Assembly (NCBI RefSeq): GCF_056746865.1 | Contig: NZ_CM163382.1 | Reading direction: 5' to 3' (one strand) | Length of the DNA: 64,000 nt | Shown: positions 50,405 through 54,584 of the stretch, piece by piece | Layout: each line of letters starts with the position of its first letter | How positions within the stretch are numbered: the stretch's first letter is position 1 | Notes under the pieces: generated by a model | The model's input: the letters and a program-made list of their open reading frames with translations, nothing else | Database searches by the model: none | What the model was told of the DNA's origin: nothing | Made by a program: the position numbers and the translations under genes

Positions 50405-51151
50405 TTATTTATTCCCCATAATGATATTAAGCGTTTTCTGATCGGGCAACCCCACGGCCTGTTGCAGTGTATTTTCCTTACTCATGTAGTAGATAGCTGG
50501 TGTGACATTTGCCCCCAGATCGTCCATCAGTTTCTCGTTGTCGCTTAACACTTTCATTTGCTCTGTACTTACGTTTGCAGGCACGTTTAGCTTAAGCTTG
50601 CCACCAGAGGCTTCATATTCTTGCCAGGTTTTTGCGGGATCTTTGGAGGCAAGAATTGCCGCTGCTGTCGCCGGGCTTTCTGGCTTGATAACGCCAACCA
50701 ACAATGTTCTTAATTGCACTTTGCCAGAATCAACCCACGGGCGAGCCTGCTGCCAGAACTGTTTACAATATGGGCAGAACGGATCGGCGAAGACGTAGAC
50801 AATGACCGGCGCGTCTTTTTTACCGTCGAGGAGCCAGTGGGATTGTTCCATCCGTTGCCACATTTCGCGCCCGGCTGGTGCGTAAATTTCTTTTTCGATA
50901 AGTGTGTTACTCAGGTTTTCACCTTTCTCGTTGTACATGTAACCGGAGATAGCGTGCTTACCATCTGGAGTCAGGTAGATGGTGACGCCCATATCCTGAT
51001 ACTTGCCGAGATAACCTTTCATTCCTCCGGGAGCATCGAACGTTTTGATGATTGTAATGCCCTGTTTTTCAATCGCTTTTACTGGATCAGGAAGTTCCTC
51101 TGCGAAGGCGATTGCAGGAAGCAGAGCCAGTAAAAGTATCTTTTTTAACAT
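50405..51151 (-). CDS. dsbG: Periplasmic thiol:disulfide interchange protein DsbG
   Basis: Translation [75 protein letters not shown]... with the CPYC active site. Confidence 0.95.
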
Positions 51152-51522
51152 TAATTTGTCCTTTTCAGTCAGTGCAAAAGTCGGGTAAAAGGCATAACCT
51201 ATCACTGTCATAGGTAAGAGCTTAGATCAGGTGATTGCCCTTTGTTTATGAGGGTGTTGTAATCCATGTCGTTGTTGCATTTGTAAGGGCAACACCTCAG
51301 CCTGCAGGCAGGCGCTGAAGATACCAAAGGGTAGTTCAGATTACACGGTCACCTGGAAAGGGGGCCATTTTACTTTTTATCGCCGCTGGCGGTGCAAAGT
51401 TCACAAAGTTGTCTTACGAAGGTTGTAAGGTAAAACTTATCGATTTGATAATGGAAACGCATTAGCCGAATCGGCAAAAATTGGTTACCTTACATCTCAT
51501 CGAAAACACGGAGGAAGTATAG

Positions 51523-52086
51523 ATGTCCTTGATTAACACCAAAATTAAACCTTTTAAAAACCAGGCATTCAAAAACGGCGAATTCATCGAAATCACCGAA
51601 AAAGATACCGAAGGCCGCTGGAGCGTCTTCTTCTTCTACCCGGCTGACTTTACTTTCGTATGCCCGACCGAACTGGGTGACGTTGCTGACCACTACGAAG
51701 AACTGCAGAAACTGGGCGTAGACGTATACGCAGTATCTACCGATACTCACTTCACCCACAAAGCATGGCACAGCAGCTCTGAAACCATCGCTAAAATCAA
51801 ATATGCGATGATCGGCGACCCGACTGGCGCCCTGACCCGTAACTTCGACAACATGCGTGAAGATGAAGGTCTGGCTGACCGTGCGACCTTCGTTGTTGAC
51901 CCGCAGGGTATCATCCAGGCAATCGAAGTTACCGCTGAAGGCATTGGCCGTGACGCGTCTGACCTGCTGCGTAAAATCAAAGCAGCACAGTACGTAGCTT
52001 CTCACCCAGGTGAAGTTTGCCCGGCTAAATGGAAAGAAGGTGAAGCAACTCTGGCTCCGTCTCTGGACCTGGTTGGTAAAATCTAA
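51523..52086 (+). CDS. ahpC: Alkyl hydroperoxide reductase peroxiredoxin AhpC
   Basis: 187-aa [86 protein letters not shown]... Confidence 0.98.
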
Positions 52087-52150
52087 ATTTCCTTCGTCTT
52101 TCGCGCTACCAACTCCGGCGCGAAATACTTCGGAAATTCACCTAATTCTT

Positions 52151-52177
52151 CGGGTGCTGCGGCACCCGATTTTCTTC
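52151..52177 (+). terminator. Putative partial terminator or attenuator hairpin between ahpC and ahpF
   Basis: Stem cgggtgc / gcacccg with a 4-nt loop, followed by a T-rich stretch (attttcttcc). Confidence 0.5.
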
Positions 52178-52256
52178 CCCGCACCATGATGCAAGCTGCA
52201 TCCAGGTAGCCGCAGAGGCCGCTTGCATGATGATGTTTAAAGCCCAGGAGATAAAC

Positions 52257-53822
52257 ATGCTCGACACAAATATGAAAACTCAACTCAAGGCTTACCTTGA
52301 GAAATTGACCAAGCCTGTTGAGTTAATTGCCACGCTGGATGACAGCGCTAAATCGGCAGAAATCAAGGAACTGTTGGCTGAAATCGCAGAACTGTCAGAC
52401 AAAGTCACCTTTAAAGAAGATAACAGCTTGCCGGTGCGTAAGCCGTCTTTCCTGATCACTAACCCAGGTTCCAACCAGGGGCCACGTTTTGCAGGTTCCC
52501 CGCTGGGCCACGAGTTTACCTCGCTGGTACTGGCGTTGTTGTGGACCGGTGGTCATCCGTCGAAAGAAGCGCAGTCTCTGCTGGAGCAGATTCGCCATAT
52601 TGACGGTGATTTTGAATTCGAAACCTATTACTCGCTCTCTTGCCACAACTGCCCGGATGTGGTGCAGGCGCTGAATCTGATGAGCGTACTGAACCCGCGC
52701 ATCAAGCACACTGCAATTGACGGCGGCACCTTCCAGAACGAAATCACCGATCGCAACGTGATGGGCGTTCCGGCAGTGTTCGTAAACGGGAAAGAGTTTG
52801 GTCAGGGTCGCATGACGTTGACTGAAATCGTCGCCAAAATTGATACTGGCGCGGAAAAACGTGCGGCAGAAGAGCTGAACAAGCGTGATGCTTATGACGT
52901 ATTAATCGTCGGTTCCGGCCCGGCGGGTGCAGCGGCAGCAATTTACTCCGCACGTAAAGGCATCCGTACCGGTCTGATGGGCGAACGTTTTGGTGGTCAG
53001 ATCCTCGATACCGTTGATATCGAAAACTACATTTCTGTACCGAAGACCGAAGGCCAGAAACTGGCAGGTGCGCTGAAAGTTCACGTTGATGAATACGACG
53101 TTGATGTGATCGACAGCCAGAGCGCCAGCAAACTGATCCCGGCAGCGGTTGAAGGTGGCCTGCATCAGATTGAAACAGCTTCTGGCGCGGTACTGAAAGC
53201 ACGCAGCATTATCGTGGCGACCGGTGCAAAATGGCGCAACATGAACGTTCCGGGCGAAGATCAGTATCGCACCAAAGGCGTGACCTACTGCCCGCACTGC
53301 GACGGCCCGCTGTTTAAAGGTAAACGCGTAGCGGTTATCGGCGGCGGTAACTCCGGCGTGGAAGCGGCAATTGACCTGGCGGGTATCGTTGAGCACGTAA
53401 CGCTGCTGGAATTTGCGCCAGAAATGAAAGCCGACCAGGTTCTGCAGGACAAACTGCGCAGCCTGAAAAACGTCGAAATTATTCTGAATGCGCAAACCAC
53501 GGAAGTGAAAGGCGACGGCAGCAAAGTCGTTGGTCTGGAATATCGCGATCGTGTCAGCGGCGATATTCACAACATCGAACTGGCCGGTATTTTCGTGCAG
53601 ATTGGTCTGCTGCCGAACACCAACTGGCTCGAAGGCGCAGTCGAACGTAACCGCATGGGCGAGATTATCATTGATGCGAAATGCGAAACCAACGTGAAAG
53701 GCGTGTTCGCAGCGGGTGACTGTACAACGGTTCCGTACAAGCAGATCATCATCGCCACTGGCGAAGGTGCCAAAGCCTCTCTGAGTGCTTTTGACTACCT
53801 GATTCGCACCAAAACAGCATAA
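52257..53822 (+). CDS. ahpF: Alkyl hydroperoxide reductase flavoprotein AhpF
   Basis: Translation [71 protein letters not shown]...; redox-active CHNC and CPHC motifs. Confidence 0.97.
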
Positions 53823-53851
53823 GAAGAAGTAAGATTCACCTGCAATTGCTT

Positions 53852-53882
53852 AGCCGCCGGGGTCAAACCTGGCGGCTTTTTT
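53852..53882 (+). terminator. Rho-independent terminator of ahpF
   Basis: Hairpin agccgccgg...ccggcggct followed by tttttt. Confidence 0.75.
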
Positions 53883-53887
53883 ATGGC

Positions 53888-53933
53888 AATAAAAAGCCCC
53901 GCCGGGATGGCTCCGGGCAGGGCGGGATATTTA
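53888..53933 (-). terminator. Putative rho-independent terminator of uspG
   Basis: GC-rich hairpin (gccccgccgggatggctccgggcagggcggg) with an A run on the plus strand, giving a U run on the minus-strand transcript, just downstream of the uspG stop. Confidence 0.55.
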
Positions 53934-53942
53934 TTCTGGCAA

Positions 53943-54371
53943 TTAACGCACAACCAGCACCGGCAGATTGGCGTGGCGGATCACGCTCGAGGCGTTAGAA
54001 CCTAACAGATGGGTCGAAATCGATGGGTTGCGAGAACCGATAACTACAACATCAGCCCCCAGTTCTTCTGCCAACTCATTGACTTCATCCCGCACGCTAC
54101 CAAAACGGACATGTTGCTTAATGCGGGAAGGATCGATGGTGAAGTGGCTGACCATCGTTTGCAGACGTTCTTCTGCTTCATGTTGCAGATGCTCTTCAAA
54201 ACGACGCACATCAGCGGCAAAACGGTGCAGGCTCAGGCTGGCTGACCCGGGTAGTACGTGAAGTAGATGAATAACTCCGTCATCCTGGGCGAGGAATTCA
54301 GCGTGGCGAACAGCTTTGTCGCTCAATTCCATTTCGAAAACATCCACTGGCATGATGATTGTCTTGTACAT
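53943..54371 (-). CDS. uspG: Universal stress protein UspG (YbdQ)
   Basis: Translation [81 protein letters not shown]... ; start at the internal Met. Confidence 0.93.
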
Positions 54372-54494
54372 AAGCATTCTCTCCTTGTTTTTGCATGTAT
54401 ACATAACAGCACATTATTGGTTATGAATCTATGATTTGCGAGGCTGATTTGATCTGAATTTGCTATTGAGCTGGAAAATAAATAAAACCAGGCG

Positions 54495-54584
54495 CTACCA
54501 GCGTTGTTCAAGGTATAGCACTGCAGCAACAATAATCGCGGCTATGAATATATAAAATGCAGTGATACCGAGAGCTTCGCTCAT
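54495..54584 (-). CDS. Candidate small hydrophobic protein (29 aa), not in the supplied ORF track
   Basis: ATG-initiated minus-strand ORF MSEALGITAFYIFIAAIIVAAVLYLEQRW: one predicted transmembrane helix and a charged C-terminal tail; weak Shine-Dalgarno sequence; sits in the uspG-rnk intergenic region. Confidence 0.25.
   Translation of the reverse strand: MSEALGITAFYIFIAAIIVAAVLYLEQRW

Follow-up and report, generated by a model that had tools for sequence, protein, structure and literature searches.

The ahpC-ahpF locus and its spacer

In E. coli, low levels of hydrogen peroxide are scavenged mainly by the AhpCF enzyme, whose two subunits the cell requires in different quantities. The DNA analyzed here, referred to below as the window, is a stretch of 64,000 nt from contig NZ_CM163382.1 (NCBI RefSeq assembly GCF_056746865.1) and is Escherichia coli DNA. 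In this window, the peroxiredoxin gene ahpC and its downstream neighbor ahpF are separated by a 170-nt spacer that carries three hairpins, which we term A, B, and C in their order from the ahpC stop codon. The features of the locus are as follows, with positions given in window coordinates.

50405-51211, minus strand: dsbG, flanking gene
51523-52086, plus strand: ahpC, peroxiredoxin coding sequence and upstream gene of the operon (open reading frame and translation; identical E. coli records carry the ahpC annotation)
52087-52256, plus strand: ahpC-ahpF spacer, 170 nt
52086-52138, plus strand: hairpin A (outer arms of an ERIC/IRU element; fold z = -4.81)
52150-52179, plus strand: hairpin B, with stem-loop at 52150-52169 and interrupted U-tract at 52170-52179 (terminator scan, fold, covariation, Term-seq)
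52181-52236, plus strand: hairpin C (fold, published RNase III site, conservation)
52246-52250, plus strand: ahpF Shine-Dalgarno sequence AGGAG (read off the sequence)
52257, plus strand: ahpF start, ATG codon 52257-52259 (the K-12 RefSeq annotation and the conserved AhpF N-terminus agree)
53943-54404, minus strand: uspG, flanking gene

A 551-nt query over the spacer found a match in 5422 of 5426 complete E. coli genomes, with an identity of at least 99% in 5400 cases. The window does not differ from K-12 MG1655 between position 52120 and the ahpF start, and published K-12 data on this segment therefore apply to it directly. Published positions were mapped onto the window by using the ahpC end (639508) and the ahpF start (639753) in NC_000913.3.

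When folded, the entire spacer is more stable than expected for its composition (z = -3.80), with none of 200 shuffled sequences folding as well. The first-pass annotation of this DNA, made from the sequence alone, had described two hairpins in the spacer. Both are present at the places given, where they correspond to hairpins B and C, and both fold better than shuffled sequences (0 of 200 and 2 of 200 shuffles, respectively, were as good). Hairpin A was absent from that annotation and is as strong as the other two (-19.8 kcal/mol when folded alone).

Two further observations concern the surroundings of the spacer and its sequence records. Between dsbG and ahpC, positions 51285-51378 on the plus strand match the Rfam model for the STnc70 sRNA (RF02069) with 44.1 bits, compared to a gathering score of 40, and an MG1655 Term-seq 3' end at 638796 on the plus strand (window 51374) falls within this match. 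In E. coli DH5alpha (NZ_CP045741.1), the spacer and the 5' end of ahpF are garbled from the middle of hairpin B onward, which probably reflects assembly errors rather than biology.

A terminator-type hairpin downstream from ahpC

Hairpin B has the architecture of an intrinsic terminator. Its arms, TCGGGTGC and GCACCCGA (52150-52157 with 52162-52169), form eight perfect base pairs, six of which are G-C, and are closed by the 4-nt loop UGCG. Directly 3' of the stem lies UUUUCUUCC, which is part of a longer T-rich tail, TTTTCTTCCC. This tail carries six T residues in its first 8 nt, just four of them consecutive, which is sufficient to count as a U-tract of the kind found in intrinsic terminators. 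When folded alone, the hairpin has a predicted free energy of -16.6 kcal/mol (z = -4.55), and it is also detected by a consensus terminator scan.

Transcript ends have been mapped at this position in living cells. The curated Term-seq collection for MG1655 (Adams et al. eLife 2021; PMC7815308) includes 3' ends at 639668 and 639670 on the plus strand, printed together with their flanking sequence. These positions correspond to 52172 and 52174 of the window, which lie in the U-tract at 3 and 5 nt past the stem of hairpin B. Term-seq had been suggested in the first-pass annotation as a check on its proposal. The collection (supplementary file 1 of that study) spans three growth conditions, and 6396 appears in it three times. 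No Rho-termination region is given for the ahpC-ahpF spacer in supplementary file 2 of the same study.

The in vivo 3' ends in K-12, where the sequence is identical, support the assignment of hairpin B as a partial terminator or 3'-end-forming element. Other intrinsic terminators that are located within operons and set protein ratios (PMC7815308) likewise combine a GC hairpin with a U-tract, exhibit 3' ends there in vivo, and permit read-through that feeds the downstream gene. Hairpin B differs from these examples in that its U-tract is interrupted, and its ability to terminate independently of RNase III is presumed.

An RNase III processing site upstream of ahpF

Hairpin C is longer and less regular. 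Its principal arms, catgatgcaagc (52185-52196) and gcttgcatgatg (52221-52232), are complementary at 11 of 12 positions, with a single G.G mismatch. The full structure at 52181-52236 comprises 20 base pairs broken by four 1x1 mismatches, and has a predicted free energy of -23.0 kcal/mol when folded alone (z = -2.52). This arrangement yields approximately 24 stacked positions (52181-52202 with 52215-52236), which is at least as long as the roughly two helical turns (about 22 bp or more) that characterize RNase III substrates.

The same hairpin has previously been encountered in experiments on RNase III. Gordon, Cameron, and Pfleger (mBio 2017; PMC5371410) set RNA-seq coverage in wild-type cells against that in an rnc deletion strain, and the second-ranked new RNase III site in their study is MG1655 position 639695 in the ahpC-ahpF spacer. 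Reads at this position numbered 4 in the wild type and 3,598 in the mutant, which corresponds to an rnc/wild-type ratio of 900. Purified RNase III also cleaves the ahpC-ahpF site in vitro (PMC5371410), on a template that included the K-12 ERIC hairpin that the window lacks. Position 639695 is located 58 nt 5' of the ahpF ATG and corresponds to window position 52199, which falls in the 5' strand of the upper stem of hairpin C, just under its apical part. Excision of the hairpin top by RNase III would be expected to produce a loss of reads at this point.

The locus studied in K-12 is the same one, and hairpins B and C are identical in sequence in the window, whereas K-12 carries a full 123-nt ERIC 5' of hairpin B where the window has only a short remnant. 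Hairpin C is thus an RNase III processing site by virtue of published K-12 experiments on identical sequence. The text of a separate article that maps RNase III cleavage at nucleotide resolution (Altuvia 2018) makes no reference to ahpC.

Cleavage has different consequences for the two messages. The half-life of ahpC mRNA was reported to be approximately 14 min in the wild type and approximately 6 min in the rnc mutant, and ahpF was unchanged; the authors propose that cleavage leaves a stabilizing 3' hairpin on ahpC (PMC5371410). The pflB transcript, described in the same study, is similar in that RNase III cuts a long imperfect hairpin in an intercistronic or untranslated region, the two halves differ in their fate, and the upstream message is stabilized by a 3' hairpin. 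A contrasting, activating case is adhE (cited in PMC5371410), where cutting by RNase III unmasks a ribosome-binding site. Unlike in adhE, the ribosome-binding site of ahpF is located outside of hairpin C, and the stability of ahpF mRNA is reported not to change. Specifically, the 3' edge of hairpin C falls 20 nt short of the ATG and 9 nt short of AGGAG, and therefore the structure does not mask the ribosome-binding site. The first-pass annotation had placed this inverted repeat over the region just upstream of the ahpF start. Its arms are as described there, although the ribosome-binding site itself remains uncovered.

Several other features near the start of ahpF can be discerned. Three in-frame ATG codons (ATGATGATG) begin at 52227 in the 3' arm of hairpin C, with an SD-like GAGG 8 nt on their 5' side, and the ahpF frame stays open for 10 codons further upstream to give a 531-amino acid open reading frame. 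We considered an upstream open reading frame or an N-terminal extension of AhpF starting at ATGATGATG and rejected both, because neither the frame nor the stop is conserved; the length of the T-run behind the ATG codons varies among genera (3, 4, or 6 nt). In addition, a perfect 7-bp hairpin, ATGTTTA/TAAACAT (52233-52239 with 52252-52258), would hold the ahpF Shine-Dalgarno sequence in its loop and pair the first two bases of the start codon. This hairpin overlaps the base of hairpin C and was seen only in Escherichia.

Hairpins B and C among relatives

Spacers for comparison were obtained from two sources. A genome scan with AhpC yielded at least 23 Enterobacterales spacers, where the type strains of Salmonella and Klebsiella were not among the matches listed. 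A metagenome scan made good this gap by adding 118 further spacers, 101 of them unique; it relied on a codon pattern of the AhpF N-terminus that passes over most Escherichia sequences. Covariation was assessed on a set of 81 distinct enterobacterial spacer tails, each 118 nt long.

Hairpin B is found from Escherichia through Pantoea, Providencia, Brenneria, and Arsenophonus. The spacers of those distant genera measure just 70-80 nt and consist of hairpin B, a run of 6-8 T residues, and then the Shine-Dalgarno sequence. Six of the eight pairs have changed on both sides among the 81 tails, and 96.9% of cells in the alignment are paired. For example, one pair is represented by CG in 38 tails and UA in 35, another by CG in 46, UA in 20, and UG in 13, and a third by GC in 72 and AU in 7. 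None of 500 shuffles reached the observed covariation score, and slid controls fell to 29%-47% paired. All 81 spacers have a T-rich tail 3' of the hairpin. These comparisons identify the terminator hairpin as an ancient element that covaries across the Enterobacterales.

Beyond this order, a strict scan detected a GC hairpin followed by a T-run in 20 of 46 ahpC-ahpF spacers (L026-L084). Several stems from Comamonadaceae carry CCCGGGTGC, which resembles the enterobacterial stem sequence. Within the Enterobacteriaceae, two spacers, L112 and L185, have hairpin C without hairpin B.

The distribution of hairpin C is narrower. Among the spacers compared, it is confined to core Enterobacteriaceae, namely Escherichia, Citrobacter, Enterobacter, Leclercia, and Superficieibacter, together with many metagenome sequences. 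Its lower stem is nearly invariant and its apical part varies freely; the alignment filter required CATGATGA in the 3' arm, and among the spacers that bear hairpin C only one (L198) departs from this 8-mer. In this main clade, 94% of cells are paired, and compensatory changes in the lower stem are observed for zero or one pair. Uncompensated changes occur on both sides, with GATG becoming GATT or GACG in the 5' arm and T becoming C in the 3' arm.

A divergent clade of four spacers (L147, L149, L155, and L162) carries a 20- to 25-bp hairpin of different sequence in the hairpin C slot (z = -4.3 to -7.9). The order of parts is the same as in the main clade, with one or two ERIC copies, CGGGTGC...GCACCCG followed by a run of seven T residues, the long hairpin, and the Shine-Dalgarno sequence. 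Compared to hairpin C of E. coli, this hairpin exhibits double replacements, such as GCAAG/CTTGC changed to TTAAG/CTTAA. The replacement hairpin speaks for selection that maintains a long double-stranded stem here. Within the main clade, the sequence backing for hairpin C comes from conservation; covariation is contributed solely by the divergent clade. The RNase III hairpin was acquired later than hairpin B, in core Enterobacteriaceae. In one further spacer (L139), an ERIC is inserted in the apical loop of the long hairpin that precedes ahpF.

A polymorphic slot for repeat elements after ahpC

Alignment to K-12 reveals that hairpin A consists of the two outer arms of an ERIC/IRU element, ATTTCCTTCGTCTTTCRCGC and CGCGAAATACTTCGGAAAT, with 11 unrelated bases between them. 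In K-12, these arms flank a 123-nt ERIC, an imperfect palindrome whose core, CGCTCACCCCGGTCACTTACTT-GTG-TAAGCTCCCGGGGATTCAC, agrees with the ERIC2 and ERIC1R primers at 21 of 22 and 20 of 22 positions, respectively. This 123-nt element is multicopy in E. coli, with a median of eight places per genome and as many as 15. Hairpin A possesses both terminal arms of the ERIC that occupies this site in K-12, Citrobacter, Enterobacter, and Superficieibacter. However, the ERIC core has no match in the window at up to three mismatches, and hairpin A alone occurs at a median of one place per E. coli genome, in contrast to a multicopy family. Because it lacks the core and is single-copy, we classify hairpin A as an ERIC-derived remnant and not as an ERIC.

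The segment from 52087 to 52149 exists in three main forms among 5426 complete E. coli genomes. The short hairpin A is present in 2545 genomes (∼47%), and the full 123-nt ERIC, as in K-12, in about 1760 (∼32%). Neither palindrome is found in about 1125 genomes (∼21%), including that of O157:H7, whose spacer is 128 nt. In other genera, the slot between the ahpC stop codon and hairpin B also carries ERIC or REP-like palindromes. In L147, for instance, the slot is occupied by a tandem pair of ERIC copies, and L012, L109, L112, and L198 each carry REP/BIME-like palindromes there. Repeats of the ERIC or REP type use the segment just after ahpC as a landing pad, and this segment is polymorphic within E. 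coli. A literature search on ERIC together with ahpC returned nothing relevant.

Weighing alternative explanations

The conserved tail of hairpin B bears on whether the element terminates transcription at all. An alternative is that polymerases read through hairpin B fully, RNase III then cuts in hairpin C, and 3'-to-5' exonucleases trim the product back, leaving hairpin B to serve only as a protective 3' cap. Such an arrangement would accord with the stabilizing 3' hairpin that Gordon et al. propose is left on ahpC (PMC5371410), with the short and interrupted Escherichia U-tract (UUUUCUUCC, four U residues and then C), and with mapped 3' ends that lie just 3-5 nt past the stem, as trimmed ends should. 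The last point is tempered by the fact that trimming is also common for Term-seq ends at true intrinsic terminators. Moreover, a T-rich run follows the hairpin in all 81 spacers, and full runs of 6-8 T residues are found in genera that lack hairpin C altogether (Pantoea, Erwinia, Brenneria, Arsenophonus, and the L019 group), which a pure exonuclease block would not need. A conserved T-run that is strongest where hairpin C is absent favors termination at hairpin B. We therefore regard the cap-only explanation as unlikely, and part of the 3' ends at hairpin B presumably arise from true termination, beyond trimming alone. It is far less probable still that hairpins B and C form a regulated attenuator, in which alternative pairing or a sensed signal would decide whether transcription stops or continues into ahpF; a partial terminator or attenuator had been suggested in the first-pass annotation. 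Seven nucleotides in the loop and 3' arm of hairpin B (52157-52163) are perfectly complementary to the upper 3'-side stem of hairpin C (52209-52215), but this match is specific to Escherichia. Only two of the 81 spacers reach 7 nt, and the longest complementary run between B and C averages 4.2 nt, against 4.3 nt in shuffled sequences. Hairpin C is transcribed after the terminator, and thus it can neither pre-empt hairpin B nor act as an antiterminator, and the predicted fold offers no rival pairing upstream of B. An attenuator or riboswitch would have an exclusive antiterminator pairing that forms before the terminator, plus a sensor, and the spacer contains no such combination. A scan of positions 51000-54500 against Rfam, at E-values up to 10, returned no riboswitch, leader, or other match in the spacer, and no conserved leader open reading frame was found among the compared spacers. 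The attenuator was rejected on these grounds: hairpin C lies downstream from B, the complementarity is not conserved, and neither an Rfam cis-regulator nor a conserved leader open reading frame is present. What survives of the earlier proposal is hairpin B as a terminator-type element with K-12 3' ends in its U-tract; hairpin C, instead of being part of an attenuator, is the RNase III site identified experimentally (PMC5371410).

A different question is why the arms of hairpin C are conserved. They might be retained for a reason unrelated to RNase III, such as an internal promoter or operator for ahpF or a sequence-specific ahpF leader, with cleavage being incidental. This possibility draws on the near-invariance of both arms across genera, where the few changes are uncompensated and CATGATGA is altered in a single spacer, and on the fact that the 3' arm would become the 5' leader of ahpF mRNA after cleavage. 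Yet the divergent clade swaps the sequence and keeps a long hairpin, which argues for structure. The in vivo loss of the hairpin C segment is strongly dependent on rnc, and ahpF mRNA is as stable in the rnc mutant as in the wild type (PMC5371410). An internal promoter was rejected because no sigma-70-like site is present in the spacer at 9 of 12 matches. Taken as a whole, a reason other than RNase III is improbable, somewhat more so than the cap-only role of hairpin B, although the near-invariant 3' arm, laid bare by RNase III cleavage, may serve ahpF as a leader with a sequence-specific role.

A model for the ahpC/ahpF message ratio

The arrangement described above suggests that the ahpC-ahpF spacer would act after transcription initiation to determine how much ahpC message is present relative to ahpF message. 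The slot directly 3' of the ahpC stop codon would accept palindromic repeats, represented here by the short ERIC remnant of hairpin A. Hairpin B would then act as a leaky intrinsic terminator, at which some polymerases stop within the U-tract, releasing an mRNA that contains ahpC alone and has a stable hairpin at its 3' end. Polymerases that read through would produce a bicistronic ahpCF RNA, in which hairpin C is the site of the RNase III cut. Of the two products, the upstream one would be trimmed back to hairpin B and thereby become as stable as the terminated transcript, and the ahpF part would decay at its own rate.

The expected outcome is an excess of ahpC message over ahpF message, which would fit the AhpC10:AhpF2 stoichiometry of the complex (PMC5371410, PMC8998176, PMC9650030). 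An excess in this direction had been predicted in the first-pass annotation, which was broadly right on this point and agrees with the published half-lives (PMC5371410). We consider it likely that leaky termination at hairpin B and RNase III processing at hairpin C together set the ahpC/ahpF message ratio; the size of the effect on the AhpC:AhpF protein ratio is something that we infer. Searches of the literature for ahpC.ahpF in RIL-seq style naming, or for Northern blots of mono- and bicistronic ahp transcripts, returned nothing relevant.

Published experiments in K-12 already characterize this spacer, with RNA 3' ends in the U-tract of hairpin B, rnc-dependent loss of the hairpin C segment, cleavage by RNase III in vitro, and longer-lived ahpC mRNA when the enzyme is present. 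The additions made here are modest, and consist of the comparative picture and the three-allele polymorphism within E. coli. With regard to the latter, we can offer the speculative and rather doubtful idea that palindromes in the slot alter how stable ahpC mRNA is at its 3' end or how often hairpin B is read through, and so give rise to a heritable, lineage-specific AhpC level or AhpC:AhpF ratio. If this were true, the turnover of repeat elements would contribute to natural variation in peroxide defense. More broadly, the locus illustrates how one operon would yield an imbalance between subunits, where a leaky terminator, together with cleavage by RNase III, lets the two messages go separate ways.
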